This document shows positions 1-8,341 of a stretch of DNA of 22,984 nucleotides, one piece after another (position 1 is the stretch's first letter; the number at the start of each line of letters is the position of its first letter). A model generated the notes under the pieces. That model did not search any database. It was not told the origin of the DNA and saw only the letters and a program-made list of their open reading frames with translations. A program made the position numbers and the translations under genes. Location of the stretch: IMG/VR virus record IMGVR_UViG_3300002293_000042. One strand, 5' to 3'. The stretch comes from a virus.

Positions 1-216
1 CGGAAATGGGAGGTCTTGATCGAGAGGGTTGGGTGGAATTACCTGATCCGGCAGGTTCTCGTATTGGATCGTGAGGACTACAAATTATATGATGTAACCC
101 TCAGACCCGAATGCATCAAGACGGTGAGGGAGAGGGTTAAGGGGTTCACCACCGGGTCCTCTGTTCTCTCATGGAATGATTTCATGGTTGAAATGAAGAA
201 TAAGGAGGTGATGTAA
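1..216 (+). CDS. Hypothetical protein, probably 5'-truncated by the window edge
   Basis: The frame is open from base 1 (RKWEVLIERVGWNY...) to TAA at 214-216. The track's TTG start at 16 is only the first start codon available. Confidence 0.6.
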   Translation, partial: RKWEVLIERVGWNYLIRQVLVLDREDYKLYDVTLRPECIKTVRERVKGFTTGSSVLSWNDFMVEMKNKEVM

Positions 217-217
217 T

Positions 218-364
218 ATGCCATTTATTGGTGTTCTTGTATCTGATGAGATATATGAGTTGATTAAGCGTGATGCTGAGGAAGAGGAGAGGAGCATCTC
301 CTCAAAGGTGAGGTACATAATAAAACAGTATTACCGTGATGAATTAGAGAAGGGGGATGAATAA
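218..364 (+). CDS. Ribbon-helix-helix (CopG/Arc/MetJ-like) DNA-binding protein, 48 aa, not in the ORF track
   Basis: My translation: MPFIGVLVSDEIYELIKRDAEEEERSISSKVRYIIKQYYRDELEKGDE. It shows the RHH pattern (alternating hydrophobic beta strand, helix, R-S-x-S, second helix). RBS AGGAGGTGA lies upstream, and the gene overlaps the next start. Confidence 0.85.
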   Translation: MPFIGVLVSDEIYELIKRDAEEEERSISSKVRYIIKQYYRDELEKGDE

Positions 365-1223
365 GATGAACATATTCAACATGCTCGACAGAGCAACCGA
401 GAAACTAAAGGAGATCAACCCTGAAACCGTTAAACTCGTCAAGAGAACCGTGACGGCTGATGCGACGGATGAGGAACTGGCCCTGTTCATGTACATGTGC
501 TACCGCTATAACCTCGACCCCCTATTGGGGGAAATCTATTTCATGAAGGCGGGGAAACACAGCAAACCCTCCTTCATAGTCTCCCGTGACGGATACCTCA
601 AAATAGCTATGAGCAACCCGGAGTATCAGGGCCTCAACTCCTTTGTCGTGAAGGAAGGGGATGAATTCGAGATTGATGCCGAGAAAGGAACAGTAAGGCA
701 CAGGTTCGGCACCAAGAGGGGTGAGATTCTTGGGGCATGGGCGGTGGCCTACCGGAAGGGCTTCAAACCCCAAATCGCCTTCGTGGACTTCAAAGAATAT
801 TTTAAACCTAAAAGTCAGGCTTGGAAGGAGTACCCGTCAGCGATGATCCAGAAAGTAGCCGAAGTCTTCGTGCTAAGGCGACAATTCAATATAACCGGGG
901 TGGTTGCGAGGGAGGAGATAGACACTAAACTACCAACCCCCACCGCCCCGCCAACGATAACTGAGACTGAGAGGGAGGTGGTGCTTGAGGGTATCGGATC
1001 CACAAGGCCCGAGCCACAGGCGGAGGACAGTGACACTCCTAAGTTAAAGATAACCCTAACCCCTGCTAATAGGGATCTTGCGATGGCCCTTAAAAGGGAA
1101 CTTGAGGACAAAGGGGAACCGGTGAATGGTGAGAATATTTACCGCCTCGCTAAGAAGAAGTTTGAAGAGGGGGAATTATCAAAGGAAGATTTTGACAGGA
1201 TAAAAACGGCCACAACCGGCTAA
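357..1223 (+). CDS. bet: Bet/RecT-family single-strand annealing protein (start 357 or 366)
   Basis: Motifs ATDEELALFMYMCYRYNLDPLLGEIYF, VSRDGYLKIA, GAWAVAYRKG and WKEYPSAMIQKVAE...LRRQF match the Bet/RecT family. A Pro/Thr linker is followed by a small helical C-terminal domain. Confidence 0.85.
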   Translation: MNKMNIFNMLDRATEKLKEINPETVKLVKRTVTADATDEELALFMYMCYRYNLDPLLGEIYFMKAGKHSKPSFIVSRDGYLKIAMSNPEYQGLNSFVVKEGDEFEIDAEKGTVRHRFGTKRGEILGAWAVAYRKGFKPQIAFVDFKEYFKPKSQAWKEYPSAMIQKVAEVFVLRRQFNITGVVAREEIDTKLPTPTAPPTITETEREVVLEGIGSTRPEPQAEDSDTPKLKITLTPANRDLAMALKRELEDKGEPVNGENIYRLAKKKFEEGELSKEDFDRIKTATTG

Positions 1224-1235
1224 TGGGAGGTTAAA

Positions 1236-3824
1236 ATGATGGATCTCCTAAACAATCTTTTTTCCAGGGAGGGCATACCAATCGTCCCCTTTAATGCTAA
1301 GGGGGATGTGGCGGATAAAAACTGGAGGCTACTCACTGAAAAAACACAGACCACTAAGGATCTGCAGTTGATTCAGGAAAAGCACCCGGGGGCTGGCCCG
1401 ATTCTTGGAGTTAAAGACCTCCGCATGGTTGAATTCACAAATCCCTTCATTTATACTTTATTCTTACAGAGGTTCCCTGAGTTAAGGGACTCATTCACAG
1501 TTAGAACAAATGACACTATACGTCTTTTTGTTAAGAGTGAGAACGGGGTTAAGGCTGTCCCAAGTATTGGTTTGGGGGTTAAGGTTCATCAGCAGGGCCC
1601 CGTGCAGGCGTTCGGGTTGAAGGATGAGGGTGGCTTCACCGTCATCGAAACCCGGGGGGATAAACTGGTAGAGTACCCCCACCTTATCCGTGAAATCTCA
1701 GGGTGGATCTGGGAGGTGGAGGAGAAGCACCCGTGGTTGTTATGGCCCTGCATCCAACGGTTAATGAGCAAGAAGAAGTTCAGCAGGAACATCATCAACC
1801 CGATCCTCAACCTCATCCTACATTATGATCCGGAGGCGGATGAGAACCTCGCCATCTCATTCTTCGAGGACTGGCCCTCCTTTAATGAGGAGATTGTGAG
1901 GAGGGCGTACCGGGAAACCCGTGAACTGATCGAATCCGATGAACTGAAACCACCGACCTGCAAGTACCTCAGAAGGAATGCGGGGATGAAAAAGAAGTCA
2001 TGCCTCGACTGTTCAAGGCCCGATGAAATCCGTAAGGATGAGTTCACCCTTGAGAGGATCGAATCACTCTTCAAGGATAAAGGGAGGAGGATCCACCACG
2101 GCCAGTACTTCGACCCGGATAACGGCCTCATCTATGCGAGCCGTCTACCCGGATTCGATGAAATTGCAGTAGTAACTAAGGAAGGGTTTTTCAAGGGCTT
2201 ACCGGCGGATTATGAGGGCCCCAAAGGTGATGCCTACATCATCGAGGGACATACAGCCCCACTATTTGATTCCACAATTGAGGACATGCTCGCCGTGGCC
2301 AAGATGACACAGGAACCACACCCCGAATTAACACTATCATCAGTCTATGATGAAGTCCTATTACGTGTCGTGAACCACTACCTTGAACTCAGAGACCCAC
2401 GTGAAGCGATGATACTCGCCCTCTGGATCATCGGAACCTACATGAGGCAACTCTTCATATGGTACCCGTACATCACCTTTTATGGGTTGAGGGATGTGGG
2501 GAAATCCACCGCCCTATCAGTCCTCAGCCACGTCTGTTTCGATGGTGGGGGTGTGATTAGCGGATCAGGGACAGAGGCCACCCTCCTTCGTTCCGCCGAG
2601 TCCAGTAAGGGCCTCAGGGTGATCGACCACTACGAGGTCATAAGGAAATCCAAGGACAAGAAACAAGTCTATGAGCAGTTCCTTGAGAACGCATGGCACC
2701 TGCATACTGTTGCTGAGAGGACCAATGCTAACACGATGGAGGTTGAGAGGTTCAGGATCGCCTCCAGTGTCGCTGTGGCCTCCCGGTACATTGACAACGT
2801 CCTCGAGGAGAAGGGTATCGTGTTTACGATGGTTGACAGTGCTGATGAAGACCTGAAGAATCGTAGCAGTGAGATCGATACTGACCCGTTTTTCAAGGAT
2901 ATCCGCCGACGCCTGATGTACGTCGCACTACAATATGCTGGGAAGGTTTTCATGAAGTATCATGAGATCCCGGAGGTGCCTGGCCTGTATGGTCGTGATA
3001 GGAACAAGTTCAAACCGTTACTCGCCCTCGCCCTCATCCTTGAGGAGGAGGGGAAATCCGGCCTCTTCGATGAGATAGCGGATTATGGTGTGGAATACAG
3101 GTTAGCAAGGAAATCTGAGGTTAAGGATTTGGAGGAGGCCTTGCTTATGTGTATCATTGAGAATGATCTTGCCAACACCACGTATTCTGAGTTGATGGAT
3201 TACCTGGAGGATGCTGGTTTTGATCGTGTGCACTGGCAGACCATCCGCTCCGACCTCAAAAAATTGAATATTGGTTTTAAAGCATATAAGGGTGTTTCTC
3301 AGAGATCCGCCACTGTTTATGTTGATTTGAGGAGGGCGAGGGAACGTGCCATCCAGAGGGGTCTTATTAAGCCAGTGAATGGTTCTGATGAGGATTCAGG
3401 GGATGATGAAAGTGTGGATGAAAACCCCCACGAAACCCGTGTAAATACACCAACCGATATAGATGAAACCATTGAAGAACAACCAAAAAAAAGTGAAACC
3501 GGGGGGTGGAGTCTGTGGGGTTACACCGAGGAAACCACAAAGGACACTGAATCATCTGGGGGCCCGGCCCTGTTAACCGATGAACCCCCCAACATCCGGA
3601 AAACCGGGATGGGTGAGATTGAAAAGAGGATAATCAAGGAACTCCAAGACCCTGACGACCCACGGCTCGGCACAGGGGTCGGTTCCCTCACACGCCGGGT
3701 CTCAACTGACTTAATGGTTGATGTTGAGGATGTCAGGAAGGCCCTCATGAAACTTATGAGGGAGAGGGTGGTTGAGGAGCCGGTGATGGGGTACTATAAA
3801 CTTGTGGAGTACACGGAGTGGTGA
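1236..3824 (+). CDS. Multidomain replication protein: Prim-Pol-like N-terminus, PriL-CTD-like Cys cluster, P-loop helicase-like domain, acidic linker, C-terminal winged helix
   Basis: GIPIVPF...KNW...TVRT N-terminus. WPCIQRLM...FNEE...PPTCKYLRR...CLDC cluster. Walker A GLRDVGKST and Walker B-like RVIDHYE. GRDRNKFKPLLALA segment. C-terminal LMKLMRERVVEEPVMGYYKLV. Confidence 0.75.
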   Translation: MMDLLNNLFSREGIPIVPFNAKGDVADKNWRLLTEKTQTTKDLQLIQEKHPGAGPILGVKDLRMVEFTNPFIYTLFLQRFPELRDSFTVRTNDTIRLFVKSENGVKAVPSIGLGVKVHQQGPVQAFGLKDEGGFTVIETRGDKLVEYPHLIREISGWIWEVEEKHPWLLWPCIQRLMSKKKFSRNIINPILNLILHYDPEADENLAISFFEDWPSFNEEIVRRAYRETRELIESDELKPPTCKYLRRNAGMKKKSCLDCSRPDEIRKDEFTLERIESLFKDKGRRIHHGQYFDPDNGLIYASRLPGFDEIAVVTKEGFFKGLPADYEGPKGDAYIIEGHTAPLFDSTIEDMLAVAKMTQEPHPELTLSSVYDEVLLRVVNHYLELRDPREAMILALWIIGTYMRQLFIWYPYITFYGLRDVGKSTALSVLSHVCFDGGGVISGSGTEATLLRSAESSKGLRVIDHYEVIRKSKDKKQVYEQFLENAWHLHTVAERTNANTMEVERFRIASSVAVASRYIDNVLEEKGIVFTMVDSADEDLKNRSSEIDTDPFFKDIRRRLMYVALQYAGKVFMKYHEIPEVPGLYGRDRNKFKPLLALALILEEEGKSGLFDEIADYGVEYRLARKSEVKDLEEALLMCIIENDLANTTYSELMDYLEDAGFDRVHWQTIRSDLKKLNIGFKAYKGVSQRSATVYVDLRRARERAIQRGLIKPVNGSDEDSGDDESVDENPHETRVNTPTDIDETIEEQPKKSETGGWSLWGYTEETTKDTESSGGPALLTDEPPNIRKTGMGEIEKRIIKELQDPDDPRLGTGVGSLTRRVSTDLMVDVEDVRKALMKLMRERVVEEPVMGYYKLVEYTEW

Positions 3825-3830
3825 TACAGG

Positions 3831-4082
3831 ATGTCCAAGACGCTTGACAGGTTCAAGAAAGCAAAACGCCTGAAGGTCAAACTGCTCGGTGAAGTCGATG
3901 AAGGCCTACTATTCGAGGTGCAGGGTTCTAATGGGCCCTACACTGTACTCTTGAACCCGCAAGGGGTGTCCTGCAACTGTAAGGATTACGAGTACAGGTC
4001 ACTCACAGCGGATGGGTACAGTTACATTTGTAAGCACGTCTGGGCCGTGATGATTCATATCTCTAGTGGGGGCTGGTTATGA
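3831..4082 (+). CDS. SWIM zinc-finger protein
   Basis: Y-x-V...CNCKDYEYR...CKHVWAV matches the CxC-xn-CxH SWIM signature. ATGA overlap with the next gene. Confidence 0.85.
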   Translation: MSKTLDRFKKAKRLKVKLLGEVDEGLLFEVQGSNGPYTVLLNPQGVSCNCKDYEYRSLTADGYSYICKHVWAVMIHISSGGWL

Positions 4083-4822
4083 CTGAGGATAAGTCAACTT
4101 TAATTAATACTTGTGTAATATGCGGTTACAAGACCAACACCCGCCACGTCAAAGGGCAGGGCCACACATGTATTCAGTGTATCAGCGATGATGACCTTGT
4201 ATTCTGTGATCAATGTGGGGAGTACCATAAATTCAAAGATTTCCCCGTTAAAGCGATTCGTAAGAACGGGCTGATAATCCGCAGGAGGATCTGTAAAGAC
4301 TGTTACAAACTCAAGGGGGAGAACACAGTATCCATCTGCAAGAAATGTGGCCGTCACGCATCCCTCAGACTCGTAAAAGACAAAGGGACGATCTGCAATG
4401 ATTGTATCAAGGATGATGACCTTGTGTTCTGTGAGTCATGCAGAGAATTCAAGCCATGGGTGGGGTTCCCATTACGTGAACAGACGAAGGGGTACCGGTG
4501 GAGGGTCTGCAAGGAATGTAAGGATAAGGGGGCCACCGTACGTTACAACCCATTCAATGGGGCCATATACAAGACATGTGGCTATGGTTCTAAACGGAAA
4601 GGTTCTAAGAGAAAGAGGCTTCCATTGAAGACGAGGCGACTGCTCAGCAGATACAAACACGCCGTCCACGTGAACAACGGGACAATGTACATTGACATAG
4701 ACTTTGCTGTGAGGTTCATGAACGACCCCCACCTGCAGGCACCAAAGTTGATAGAACTCTACCACCACTTAATGGGGGGTAAATGGTTCATCACACCCAA
4801 AAATAGGGGGGATAACCATTAA
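4079..4822 (+). CDS. Cys-rich protein with two tandem 8-Cys zinc-binding modules and a non-Cys C-terminal domain
   Basis: Eight CxxC pairs in two approximately 65-aa repeats sharing CxxCG...R-x-VK...CxxCIxDDDLVFCxxC...F...RxCxxC. Confidence 0.8.
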   Translation: MTEDKSTLINTCVICGYKTNTRHVKGQGHTCIQCISDDDLVFCDQCGEYHKFKDFPVKAIRKNGLIIRRRICKDCYKLKGENTVSICKKCGRHASLRLVKDKGTICNDCIKDDDLVFCESCREFKPWVGFPLREQTKGYRWRVCKECKDKGATVRYNPFNGAIYKTCGYGSKRKGSKRKRLPLKTRRLLSRYKHAVHVNNGTMYIDIDFAVRFMNDPHLQAPKLIELYHHLMGGKWFITPKNRGDNH

Positions 4823-5564
4823 TCTTAAAAAAAAGTTTGGGTTCTGTGATAACTGTGGGAAGAGGACGGTTGTGAGGCTCGTGAAAGACAGGGGGTGGCT
4901 GTGCACCAAGTGTATCGCAGATGACGACTATGTGTTCTGCCCGAGCTGTAAACGATACAGGAGGTGGACTGATTTCAAGGAATACGTTTACGTCCATGGT
5001 GGTAGGAGCCGGTACCATGCCTGCAAGTCATGTCATAATCCGAAGTCGGGTGGTGATGGGTACGGGTACTGTGAAGAGTGCGGGAAACGTACAAGGCCCC
5101 GCCTAACCGGGGATGGGAGGCTCGTATGCATCACCTGTCTACCCGTAACGGGGAGGGTTCTCTGTCAGGGTTGTGGGGAGTTCAAGGATGTCACAGAATT
5201 CCGAAGGGTTCACAACCAATTATTGGGGGTATCAAGGATGAGGATCTGCCCTGAGTGTGAGAGGAACCATATCCCTGTCCGGATAAACCCCATCACTTTT
5301 AGGCGGAAGATGATGGAGAACAAAGATGAAAGCAGGGAGGGGTTGGAGTATCATGAGGATGTGCCGGGTCTTGACGGGCTTTATAACATTGATCTCCTCA
5401 TACAGGATGGGGTTATCAGCAGGGAGGGTGATGAGTACCGTCTTAGTGTGAGGTGGGCGTTGAGTATTGTCTCTGAGACTTTCATCAGCGACCCGGTCGT
5501 CAGAGAGATACGTGAGAAGATCCTGTCCGGCGACTTCTGTTTCCATAATAAACTCAAAGATTAA
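4818..5564 (+). CDS. Paralog of 4079-4822 with two 8-Cys modules; probable non-canonical ATT (4818) or ATA (4812) start; track start is GTG 4872
   Basis: The frame is open from 4773. The first CxxC (FCDNCGKR, 4842-4865) lies upstream of the GTG at 4872. GGGGG at 4806-4811 precedes ATA-ACC-ATT. From ATT the protein is 248 aa versus 247 aa for its paralog. Confidence 0.75.
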   Translation: MNLKKKFGFCDNCGKRTVVRLVKDRGWLCTKCIADDDYVFCPSCKRYRRWTDFKEYVYVHGGRSRYHACKSCHNPKSGGDGYGYCEECGKRTRPRLTGDGRLVCITCLPVTGRVLCQGCGEFKDVTEFRRVHNQLLGVSRMRICPECERNHIPVRINPITFRRKMMENKDESREGLEYHEDVPGLDGLYNIDLLIQDGVISREGDEYRLSVRWALSIVSETFISDPVVREIREKILSGDFCFHNKLKD

Positions 5565-5610
5565 AACCCCCCACCACAGAAAGAACCATTTTTTTCACTG
5601 TTTTTTATAG
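5565..5610 (+). terminator. Archaeal oligo-T terminator ending the replication block
   Basis: C-rich stretch followed by T7 (5589-5595) and T6 (5601-5606) just after the stop at 5564. Confidence 0.6.
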
Positions 5611-5624
5611 TCAAGGGGGCCCCC

Positions 5625-5680
5625 CATCACTTTTATATTATCACCGCACAGATAATATTATTAATCTCAAAATATTATGT
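5625..5680 (+). promoter_or_regulatory. Putative TATA-box promoter with two palindrome-like AT boxes
   Basis: TTTTATATTA at 5631-5640 in the only sizeable AT-rich gap between the early and late blocks. Perfect palindrome ATAATATTAT at 5652-5661 and a 9/10 copy at 5669-5678. Confidence 0.5.
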
Positions 5681-6098
5681 GGGAGGTTTGGTCTGCCTGA
5701 AGAAGAAGAGGAAGTGCAGGTGGTGTGGCCTCGAATTCACACCCAACAGGCACAGGAAATTCTACTGTTCTGAACACTGCAGGTTGGAGGCCCGCCGTGA
5801 GAACCAACGCAACTGGGCTTACAGGAAATACTACTCCTATTATCGCCTCTTCAAATATAATCTTGATTTTGTTGACACCGTTGAGGAACCATTGAACAAC
5901 CCCCATATACGGGTCTGCCCGGAGTGTGAATCAACCAACCTCTTTTTCGACCGTAAACGAGCCGAAACCACATGCAAAGACTGTGGCTTGGTCCTATACC
6001 ACCCCTACCCTTATGCTTGGTATATAAGAGTTATTTACCCCCATACCAAACCACACCCCCAAGTGAAGAACAGGGAACACCACCTTTCCTGTCGATAA
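5679..6098 (+). CDS. Two-zinc-finger protein: treble-clef-like CxxC...YCSxxC plus a TFIIB/TFB-type zinc ribbon; putative transcription regulator (start uncertain, GTG 5679 or TTG 5688)
   Basis: CRWCGLEF...KFYCSEHCR, followed by a basic helix. CPECESTNLFFDRKRAETTCKDCGLVL (5916-5996) matches the TFB N-terminal ribbon pattern CPxCGSxxLxxDxxRxExxCxxCGLV. Confidence 0.75.
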   Translation: MGGLVCLKKKRKCRWCGLEFTPNRHRKFYCSEHCRLEARRENQRNWAYRKYYSYYRLFKYNLDFVDTVEEPLNNPHIRVCPECESTNLFFDRKRAETTCKDCGLVLYHPYPYAWYIRVIYPHTKPHPQVKNREHHLSCR

Positions 6099-6119
6099 CA
6101 TATAATAGAGGTGGTGTTA

Positions 6120-6272
6120 ATGATAACTGAACGAAACGAAACAATAGCAATACTAATCCTTGGAGTCCTCGGAGCACTCTCCATGTACAAAGGAAACACG
6201 GAACTCGCATCAGTCGTTGTCGGGGCCATCGCCGGGTACATAACACACAACATCACAGCGGAGGAAAACTAA
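6120..6272 (+). CDS. Small two-transmembrane protein, holin-like, 50 aa, not in the ORF track
   Basis: My translation: MITERNETIAILILGVLGALSMYKGNTELASVVVGAIAGYITHNITAEEN. It has two hydrophobic segments with a K-G turn. RBS GAGGTGGTG at 6108-6116. The next gene starts 3 nt after the stop. Confidence 0.75.
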   Translation: MITERNETIAILILGVLGALSMYKGNTELASVVVGAIAGYITHNITAEEN

Positions 6273-6274
6273 GA

Positions 6275-6544
6275 ATGGCCCCAGACAGGAACAGCACCAA
6301 AAACCATGAATGCCTCAGAAACAAAGACTTCAAGGACTACTACGCATTCAAAGAATCCATTCTGAAATTCATGGGGGGGAAGGAAGTGACGAACGGCTAC
6401 ATAAACAACGAATTCAAAGAACTCAACCAGAGACTCGACGACCTCGAGAACAAACTATACAAACTCATATTCCTATTCCTCACAGTAGCAATAACAAACC
6501 TGTCCTCAATGATCATCATGATGATAAACATGCTAAAACCCTAA
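6275..6544 (+). CDS. Coiled-coil protein with C-terminal transmembrane helix
   Basis: Heptad FKELNQRLDDLENKL followed by hydrophobic LIFLFLTVAITNLSSMIIMMINML. Confidence 0.7.
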   Translation: MAPDRNSTKNHECLRNKDFKDYYAFKESILKFMGGKEVTNGYINNEFKELNQRLDDLENKLYKLIFLFLTVAITNLSSMIIMMINMLKP

Positions 6545-6571
6545 AAAAATCAAAAGGAGGGTGAACATCCC

Positions 6572-7003
6572 ATGCCAAGACGCAGCAAACTAACACCCGA
6601 ACTCCAAGCCAGAATCTGCAAATACATCGAAGAAGGCTACACAATCGAACAAAGCTGTGCCCTCAGCGGAATCGGAGTCAGCACCTACTACCGATGGCTC
6701 GAAAAAGGCAGGAAACACAAAAGAGGCAAATACCGGGAGTTTTGGGAGGCAACCCAAACCAGTGAACAAATCGCCGAAGCCAAAATACTCCAAACAATCC
6801 TCCAAACAGCCAAAAGCGACCCCCTCAAAAACATAAAAGGCGACTGGAAAGCCGCAGCATGGTACCTTGAACGAAGAAAACCAAAACGCTGGGCAAAAAC
6901 CGAAAAACTACAACAAGACATAAAAGCCGATGTTAAAAAGACTGAACTGCAGGTTGACATTGAACAGGCCAGGAAATACTTTGAGGAACTTGAAAAGGAA
7001 TAG
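6572..7003 (+). CDS. terS: Terminase small subunit
   Basis: N-terminal HTH (SKLTPE...IEEGYTIEQSCALSGIGVSTYYRW), WKAAAWYLERR motif, and position directly before terL. Confidence 0.85.
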   Translation: MPRRSKLTPELQARICKYIEEGYTIEQSCALSGIGVSTYYRWLEKGRKHKRGKYREFWEATQTSEQIAEAKILQTILQTAKSDPLKNIKGDWKAAAWYLERRKPKRWAKTEKLQQDIKADVKKTELQVDIEQARKYFEELEKE

Positions 7004-7018
7004 AGTGGGGAACCGGCA

Positions 7019-8341
7019 ATGACACGTGAGGGGCCCCGGACATTCACAGCTGAGGAGAAAGCACTCCTCTACAGGACGATCCTACTGAACCCCTACATCC
7101 CCCACAGGCCATTCCGCCAGCAAGCCGAATTCCTCTGCGACACCTCAGATGAAGTATTTTATGGTGGATCCGCTGGTGGGGGTAAATCCGACGCACTACT
7201 CATGGGGGCCCTGCAGTACGTGGAGGAACCCGGGTACTCAGCCCTGATACTCCGCCGAACCTACCCTGAACTCACACAGGAAGGCGGATTAATCGACCGT
7301 AGCCACGAATGGTTAGAAGGCACAGACGCTGAATGGTCAGAGTCAAAGAAACAATGGATTTTCCCCTCCGGGGCGACACTACAATTCGGGCATATGGAGT
7401 ATGAGAAGGATAAGTACAGGTATCAGGGTTCAGCGTATCACTTTATTGGTTTTGATGAGTTAACTCAGTTCACTGAGACTCAGTACCGTTTCATGTTCCG
7501 TTCACTCCGTAAGGACTCGGATGATTGGTTACCACTTCGGATGAGGGCGACGGGTAACCCGGGTGGGCTGGGCCATGACTGGGTGAAGGAACGGTTCATT
7601 GAGGGGGATAAGAAGTTCATACCATCCTCGTGGAGGGAGAACCCTTACCTTGATAGGGGGGCGTATGAGAGGGCTCTTGATGAACTGGATCCGGTGATGA
7701 GGCAGTACCTCAAATATGGGGATTGGGATTACATACCAGCGAAGGGTGAATTATTTGATTTTAATATCCTTGAATCTTTGATTGCTGATTTTGATCCTTG
7801 TGAGGTTGATTATCGGCGACTCGTTAGGGGCGTGGATTTCGCAGTTACGGGTAGTGGTGATAGGACGGCGATGACACTTATAGGTGCACGGGAGGGTATG
7901 GAGGCCTATGACATCCTCGACTGCAGGGTGTATCAGGGGACACAACCCGAACAAATCCTACTTAGTGTGATTGGGGATGACCTCGACCTCTACGGGCCCC
8001 TTGGGGTGGAGTATGTGATTGAGAAGGAACCCGGCAGTAGCGGGGAATTCACCGAACGGTACATTAAGGAACTCGTTGAGGCTGAGCACGGCCCAGATGT
8101 CACCTTAACCTTTGAGAGGCCGGTGAAGAACAAGTTCAACCGTGCCCGTCCCCTCAGCAGGGCTGTGAATAATGGCCTTGTAAGGTTACTCCGTGGTGGG
8201 TGGAATGATGAGTTCATCAGGGAACTCGCACAGTTCAGCAGTGACGAATCCCTGTACCAGTATGATGATATTGTTGACTCAGCATCACTCTCCTTCAACA
8301 CCGTCAGGGGTAGGGGGGCTGAGCTGAGCATAACATTCTAA
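7019..8341 (+). CDS. terL: Terminase large subunit
   Basis: Walker A YGGSAGGGKS, Walker B FIGFDELTQF, ATGNPGG coupling motif, RNase H-like nuclease acidic motifs GVDFA and DDIVDS. Confidence 0.95.
   Translation: MTREGPRTFTAEEKALLYRTILLNPYIPHRPFRQQAEFLCDTSDEVFYGGSAGGGKSDALLMGALQYVEEPGYSALILRRTYPELTQEGGLIDRSHEWLEGTDAEWSESKKQWIFPSGATLQFGHMEYEKDKYRYQGSAYHFIGFDELTQFTETQYRFMFRSLRKDSDDWLPLRMRATGNPGGLGHDWVKERFIEGDKKFIPSSWRENPYLDRGAYERALDELDPVMRQYLKYGDWDYIPAKGELFDFNILESLIADFDPCEVDYRRLVRGVDFAVTGSGDRTAMTLIGAREGMEAYDILDCRVYQGTQPEQILLSVIGDDLDLYGPLGVEYVIEKEPGSSGEFTERYIKELVEAEHGPDVTLTFERPVKNKFNRARPLSRAVNNGLVRLLRGGWNDEFIRELAQFSSDESLYQYDDIVDSASLSFNTVRGRGAELSITF

Follow-up and report, generated by a model that had tools for sequence, protein, structure and literature searches.

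The AEP-PriCT-helicase-winged helix architecture is already known from mobile elements: a design in which an archaeo-eukaryotic primase (AEP) domain is followed by PriCT, an ATPase, and a winged helix is common there, PriCT is related to the Fe-S_N subdomain of the primase large subunit PriL, and primase-MCM fusions have been described (PMC5862659). We analyzed a protein of this kind, P0001 (862 residues), encoded in a 22,984-nucleotide viral sequence (IMG/VR record IMGVR_UViG_3300002293_000042; the window hereafter, meaning the whole stretch). The window is 98.8% identical across its full length to Methanobacterium virus PhiF3 (MN737622.1; Caudoviricetes, Methanobavirales, Anaerodiviridae), whose host is Methanothermobacter thermautotrophicus FF3. 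P0001 corresponds to PhiF3 ORF2 (open reading frame 2), which is labeled "hypothetical protein" in GenBank and for which no description of a function was found in the literature searched. We propose that P0001 is probably the initiator-helicase of this PhiF3-like tailed archaeal virus, descended from a mobile-element primase-helicase and combining a dead primase, a working motor, and a host-coupled second winged helix.

The nearest described systems are the pRN1 ORF904 and PrimPol-PV1/PrimQH-type primase-helicases (PMC5862659), from which P0001 differs in its lost AEP catalytic residues. Its helical domain carries four invariant cysteines, whereas the PriCT-1 domain of pRN1 has no cluster; its motor is an MCM-like AAA+ ATPase rather than the superfamily 3 helicase of pRN1; and it has two winged helices and an acidic tether, unlike the pRN1 and PrimPol-PV1 types. 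P0001 does not match the Pfam PriCT_1 or PriCT_2 models. With the PriL C-terminal domain (PriL-CTD) and PriX it appears to share a helical fold class, and the first cysteine of the family aligns with C336 of yeast PriL; the domain of P0001, however, is limited to about 95 residues that correspond to the N-terminal subdomain of PriL-CTD, and its fourth cysteine is provided by a C-x2-C motif and not by a distant helix. Cch (SCCmec), SaPI Rep, and PriRep1, which are staphylococcal, differ in their bacterial hosts, their canonical Walker B motifs, and the lack of a tethered second winged helix of the MCM type, and sequence-level similarity between them and P0001 was not detected. P0001 also falls outside the MCM family proper (PF00493), having no Pfam match, a Walker B motif that reads IDHYE (D-E-F-D in archaeal MCM, D-H-Y-E in P0001), an AEP N-terminus, and an extra winged helix; the N-terminal OB/Zn domain and the helix-2 insert of archaeal MCM are both absent, the insert being judged from the model. 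What we regard as new is the functional reading of PhiF3 ORF2, the compact four-Cys PriL-like domain inside a Prim-Pol-helicase fusion, the repeated and coordinated pseudogenization of the priming module within a sole replication protein whose remaining parts are conserved, the Walker B motif with Glu and His exchanged, and the attachment of an MCM-type winged helix through an acidic tether.

Searches with P0001 alone against Pfam, PHROGs, NCBIfam, and PDB sequences yielded no significant match; the sole weak ones were to DUF5797 (domain of unknown function; 16 bits, on the second winged helix) and phrog_21086 (E 0.024). A homologue search recovered 17 close clusters, and the central region (residues 360-720) is common to 1750 representatives (E<1e-3) whose N-termini carry Prim-Pol (PF09250) in some cases and a DnaG-type zinc ribbon with Toprim in others. 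We therefore take the central region to be the ATPase partner of primases and, judging from its sequence, a member of a large family of such ATPases that carries no name; links to DUF3631 and DUF5906 are weak. P0040 can be aligned with the P0001 family from end to end (hhalign probability 100%), and P0163, an 803-residue protein encoded in a Methanobacteriota genome (L038:8812-11223:-), agrees with the family in its motifs and in the order of its domains. The succession of AEP, four-Cys domain, motor, and winged helix is found in relatives at 20% identity, and the combination is inherited within an old mobile-element family. The P0163 locus itself (L038, G029:C1:962000-981999) is chromosomal and is probably an integrated element; P0163 has an intact D-x-D, the four cysteines, and a canonical D-E Walker B, and adjoins ORFs of 904 and 582 residues. 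A further family member, 41% identical, lies on a 2.9-kb contig (VGAU01000238.1, L005) binned as an Actinomycetota metagenome-assembled genome from a deep lake; mis-binning of an archaeal viral contig is a likelier explanation than a bacterial origin of the gene.

The N-terminal domain of P0001 has the AEP catalytic fold without its catalytic residues (table 1). PF09250 is matched by 8 of 14 relatives and not by P0001 at E<=1, and the placement of motif I is supported by the alignment of pRN1 LDFES with the family's IDFD. Motifs I to III are intact in P0006, P0013, P0023, P0026, and P0054 (D-x-D, TPNGG[FY]H, and an acidic residue, respectively), so that the four catalytic positions read D/D/H/E in intact relatives and E/T/R/K in P0001, which has thereby lost the metal ligands of motif I, the His of motif II, and the acidic residue of motif III. 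Other replacements, each unlike the rest, occur in P0003, P0004/5, and P0012; across the dead members the four positions read E/T/R/K, E/K/L/Y, I/K/I/E, and R/K/Y/D. Identities between pairs of dead members are 22-27% in the AEP domain, 25-38% in the four-Cys domain, and 66-72% in the AAA+ domain, as against 36-58%, 36-55%, and 25-45% between pairs of intact members; relative to the motor, the AEP domain has evolved about three times faster in dead than in intact lineages. In a maximum-likelihood tree built from the ATPase core, dead P0012 pairs as a sister with intact P0013 (support 100/100), apart from a clade made up of P0001, P0003, P0004, and P0005, all of them dead (100/100). Loss of the priming residues therefore occurred on at least two occasions, and these sequences indicate that the primase module decayed independently each time. 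P0001 most probably makes no primers by itself.

The domain that follows probably belongs to the helical class of the PriL-CTD N-terminal subdomain, PriX, and PriCT. Its fold matches are to PriX and to the photolyase alpha-domain, a likeness known for PriL-CTD (PMC5700102). C172, C242, C256, and C259 do not vary across 14 family members whose identity falls as low as about 20%. Their spacing (69/13/2) is PriL-like for the first three only; the fourth is supplied by a CxxC motif, whereas in PriL it lies ~40 residues further downstream. The sequence evidence that links this domain to PriL is transitive, by way of P0040 and P0163. On the four-Cys domain, full-length P0040 (24.3 bits) and P0163 (26.4 bits) pass the 22.4-bit cut-off of Pfam DNA_primase_lrg (PF04104), and P0040 also matches NCBIfam PriL models. 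When the four-Cys domain of P0163 was compared with PDB sequences, yeast PriL accounted for 11 of 13 matches (best E 0.026), with Y-Q-C-I-K-N of P0163 placed opposite L-C336-I-K-N-L of the yeast protein (motif [YLW]-x-C-I-[KQ]-x-L), in which we take C336 to be the first cluster ligand. Together with their invariance, this alignment is consistent with the four cysteines being ligands of a predicted 4Fe-4S cluster. P0001 has no PF04104 match, and a comparison of its own four-Cys domain with PDB sequences gave no PriL. Nor did a family four-Cys sub-alignment match 21 Methanobacteriales PriL sequences significantly (hhalign probability 0.4%); a hidden Markov model of 32 Methanobacteriota PriL proteins found nothing below E 0.01 among all family proteins, and PriL-CTD chains were absent among the best 50 matches listed in both fold searches of the N-terminal model. 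A recent capture of host PriL is rejected, since PriL profiles and hhalign fail to detect the family. We read the domain as a shortened one of the PriL-CTD/PriCT class, old in the mobile-element lineage and not recently taken from a host.

In PriX, the initiating nucleoside triphosphate (NTP) is gripped at the N-terminal turn of helix 2 (PMC5700102), and we place the initiating-NTP site of the four-Cys domain by analogy with it. Intact members read H-E-Q-R at this turn; the AEP-dead members read R-N-I-I (R184 to I187 of P0001), D-K-A-W, N-S-A-I, and D-K-E-N, so that P0001 does not retain the basic residues of the site. The decay of H-x-x-R coincides exactly with the AEP-dead lineages. In these lineages the cysteines are still invariant; this speaks for a structural role of the putative metal/Fe-S site.

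These results bear on several claims of a first-pass annotation. It had located the lost catalytic motifs at MVEFT and NDTIRLF, correctly, as E66/T68, R96, and K116 show when set against intact relatives, and its view that P0001 does not prime by itself is supported as the most probable one. Its suggestion of four cysteines spaced as in PriL stands for their number and invariance and for the first three positions, the fourth coming from CxxC; the resemblance to PriL-CTD holds transitively through the PF04104 matches of P0040 and P0163, P0001 itself having no PriL match. Its "captured host modules" are not supported for the PriL-like domain, which shows no significant similarity to host PriL and is inherited in the mobile-element family, and the idea that this domain stands in as PriL for host PriS becomes less likely, because H-x-x-R is degraded.

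The motor was modeled with the rest of the C-terminal half (residues 336-862, predicted local distance difference test score [pLDDT] 85.3), and the best matches of its AAA+ core are MCM proteins. Its structural kin, MCM, Cch, SaPI Rep, and PriRep1, are proven helicases or initiators, and the model shows the pre-sensor-1-type beta-hairpin, lid, and winged helix of the Cch/SaPI Rep/PriRep1 type. K423, D464, H465, E467, R517, and R587 are invariant or almost so, and R452 is conserved too. In the near subfamily the Walker B sequence is D-H-[YFLM]-E, with H465 and E467 invariant even in canonical Prim-Pol members; in the distant P0040, P0054, P0136, and P0163 it is D-E-[YF]-H. This exchange of Glu and His between subfamilies argues for a relocated catalytic Glu and not for a dead ATPase. 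Between the four-Cys domain and the motor lies a beta-rich domain, which is also found in the short AEP-less relatives P0016 and P0019. A separate observation concerns the Methanobacterium-type relatives P0007-P0011 and P0014-P0017, which have a canonical Prim-Pol: here a DnaG-type CHC2 zinc-ribbon-like stretch (alignment columns about 270-345; PF01807 E 4e-4 for P0008) replaces the four-Cys domain, with its Cys/His ligands all seemingly substituted (NPLKKQESDSPSF...WYSHSSDESGDVIDF), which looks like a domain swap that brought in a metal-free zinc ribbon.

Two winged helices follow the motor. Evidence for the first (WH1) is that the structural alignments with Cch, 8tch, and 7pds extend to model residues 368-379. 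For the second (WH2), 81 Methanobacteriales genomes searched in six frames with the C-terminal 77 residues yielded two matches, both to MCM_WH_arc, the domain with which MCM ends. Pairwise BLASTP of WH2 with the Methanobacteriales MCM C-terminal winged helix gave 34% identity (E 2e-7), the ends reading GYYKLV and GYYKVV; in hhalign of the family against host MCM the winged helix alone aligns (E 1e-4), and relatives have sub-threshold Pfam matches to MCM_WH_arc and RPA_C. In both fold and sequence similarity WH2 resembles the archaeal MCM C-terminal winged helix (PF21120), and from these comparisons we consider the two homologous. In Sulfolobus the MCM winged helix touches origin-bound Orc1-1 (PMC12141716), and in Pyrococcus PriS and PolD are bound by an Rpa2 winged helix that is carried on an acidic linker (PMC11686378). 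By analogy, recruitment of host factors through WH2 is plausible, and WH2 probably docks one; a co-fold of M. thermautotrophicus PriS with residues 786-862 scored 0.00, which speaks neither for nor against binding.

The mosaic recognized in the first-pass annotation, of degenerate Prim-Pol, PriL-CTD-class four-Cys domain, atypical AAA+ motor, and MCM/RPA-type winged helix, is thus borne out, as is its intact Walker A GLRDVGKST, whose key residues are invariant. It rightly saw His at the Glu position of Walker B (VIDHYE), which is a conserved subfamily trait and not a defect. Host capture of WH2 would be at most an ancient event.

The loss of the four AEP positions and of H-x-x-R, in a protein whose motor and both winged helices are conserved, can be read as follows. 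The ancestor would have been a mobile-element primase-helicase with a Prim-Pol AEP, a PriL-CTD/PriCT-like initiation domain, an MCM-like AAA+ motor, and a winged helix. P0001 would no longer synthesize primers, and its N-terminal half may persist as a structural or single-stranded DNA-binding collar whose fold is held by the four-Cys metal/Fe-S site. The AAA+ ring would hydrolyze ATP by means of D464 and the relocated E467 and unwind viral DNA, with WH1 binding DNA as in self-loading helicases of the Cch/SaPI Rep type, and the tethered WH2 would link the ring to host replication factors. Another Prim-Pol, PriS, Toprim, or PolB was not found in the complete 32.5-kb PhiF3 genome; P0001 is the only recognizable replication protein of this virus, and priming and synthesis by the host are therefore needed. 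Host PriSL and PolD would carry out both on the unwound DNA, and the neighboring RecT may provide recombination-dependent starts.

Two features weigh against this proposal: E66 is still present, with the acidic D61 and D93 near the former AEP active site, and the His at the catalytic-Glu position could mean slow, switch-like use of ATP instead. The former would matter if P0001 were an active, self-priming primase-helicase in which E66, other acidic residues (e.g., D61 or D93), and R96 rebuild a metal/NTP site. The change from Asp to Glu is conservative, an Arg at the motif II His position also occurs in P0020, P0040, and P0163, which otherwise keep D-x-D and Glu, and the virus has no second primase. 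However, three of the four catalytic positions are changed non-conservatively and differ between clade members, which is the pattern of lost constraint, and both the accelerated evolution of the AEP domain and the decay of H-x-x-R in the very same lineages tell against self-priming, which we consider very unlikely. We give still less credence to a surrogate large subunit, in which the dead AEP and the PriL-like Fe-S domain would dock host PriS and form a virus-host hybrid primase from captured host modules. The four cysteines are strongly selected despite lost catalysis, PriS requires a domain of the PriL-CTD class for dinucleotide formation (PMC5700102), and an RPA2-type winged helix binds PriS in Pyrococcus (PMC11686378); but the four-Cys domain is not host-derived, P0001 lacks the PriS-binding N-terminal domain of PriL, H-x-x-R is degraded at the very turn where PriX grips the initiating NTP (PMC5700102), and in the P0001 clade the domain evolves fast (25-38% identity, against 66-72% for the motor).

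The His of Walker B leads to another alternative, an origin-binding initiator or loader whose AAA+ domain acts as a slow, Orc1/Cdc6-like ATP switch that marks or melts the viral origin and passes it to host MCM. His occupies this position throughout the subfamily, the order of AAA+, lid, and winged helix is that of Orc1/Cdc6-type initiators, and WH2, given its likeness to the MCM winged helix, could compete with or mimic it. We nevertheless think this quite unlikely, given the pre-sensor-1-type beta-hairpin in the model (residues 492-507) and an E467 that is invariant where distant members have His, and vice versa, which suggests a catalytic Glu moved rather than lost. Unlikely in our view is an elaboration in which P0001, with dead AEP and Fe-S PriL-like collar, acts as a viral surrogate MCM: the tethered WH2 would mimic the host MCM winged helix, Orc1/Cdc6 would load the viral ring instead of MCM, and PriSL and PolD would be recruited. 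Taking these alternatives together with the evidence above, we favor the initiator-helicase with host-supplied priming.

Table 1. Features of P0001 and of the genes on either side, in window coordinates
Feature	Residues	Position	Strand	Basis or detail
P0001, whole gene	862 in all	1236..3824	+	ORF confirmed; 99.3% identity to PhiF3 ORF2
Prim-Pol (AEP) fold domain, catalytically degenerate	1-165	1236..1730	+	
Motif I (D-x-D/E) remnant, MVEFTN; E66 retained, second acidic residue replaced by T68	64-69	1425..1442	+	Family alignments
Motif II (TPNGG[FY]H) remnant, TNDTIRL; His replaced by R96	91-97	1506..1526	+	Alignments
Motif III position, GVKVH; E/D of relatives replaced by K116	114-118	1575..1589	+	Alignment
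Helical four-Cys domain, probable PriL-CTD N-subdomain/PriX/PriCT class	166-262	1731..2021	+	C172, C242, C256, C259
Beta-rich conserved domain, invariant G289	270-345	2043..2270	+	Predicted secondary structure and conservation
AAA+ ATPase core and helical lid, MCM-like; beta-hairpin ahead of strand 4 (492-507)	346-628	2271..3119	+	
Walker A, GLRDVGKST	417-425	2484..2510	+	G417, G422, K423, T425 invariant
Walker B, LRVIDHYE; His at usual catalytic-Glu place, invariant Glu at +3	460-467	2613..2636	+	
WH1, directly after the lid as in Cch/SaPI Rep/PriRep1	632-708	3129..3359	+	H-b-H-H-b-b
Acidic disordered tether	719-789	3390..3602	+	pLDDT 36-46; sequence
WH2, archaeal MCM/RPA32-type	790-858	3603..3809	+	
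RecT-family annealase gene, directly upstream of P0001		357..1223	+	Pfam RecT E 1e-32
SWIM zinc-finger protein gene, neighbor of P0001		3831-4082		

Beyond the SWIM gene lie two genes for CxxC-rich proteins, followed by those for the large terminase subunit, portal, MuF, protease, and capsid. The replication gene is immediately preceded by a RecT gene in the window and likewise in L039 (3370-4227) and L041 (2729-3625), among both dead-AEP and intact-AEP relatives; the pair is a conserved two-gene replication/recombination module of these archaeal tailed viruses. The first CxxC-rich gene encodes 247 residues in the window (4079-4822) and 306 in PhiF3 (4131-5051), a difference of 59 codons, and contains internal repeats of about 225 nucleotides, which suggests that the copy number of a Cys module has changed between two viruses that are 98.8% identical. 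No iteron-like repeats were seen in window positions 1-7100, where the coding repeats of the CxxC genes are the sole repeats. A haloarchaeal affiliation, prompted by the acidic linker and the DUF matches, is ruled out by the identity to PhiF3.

Our analysis proposes a function for the largest non-structural gene of PhiF1/PhiF3-type viruses (family Anaerodiviridae) and presents the P0001 family as a natural experiment in the loss of priming by a primase-helicase. The four cysteines are retained while the AEP residues and H-x-x-R have decayed jointly on at least two occasions, an observation relevant to the debate over whether the Fe-S cluster of PriL acts structurally or in catalysis. The Glu/His swap in Walker B and the tethered MCM-type winged helix offer testable handles on how these viruses connect to the Orc1/Cdc6-MCM-PriSL machinery of methanogens. 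If P0001 were a surrogate MCM, it would represent a viral hijack of the archaeal licensing step, and the repeated loss of priming would then mark lineages that have switched from self-primed to host-primed replication.

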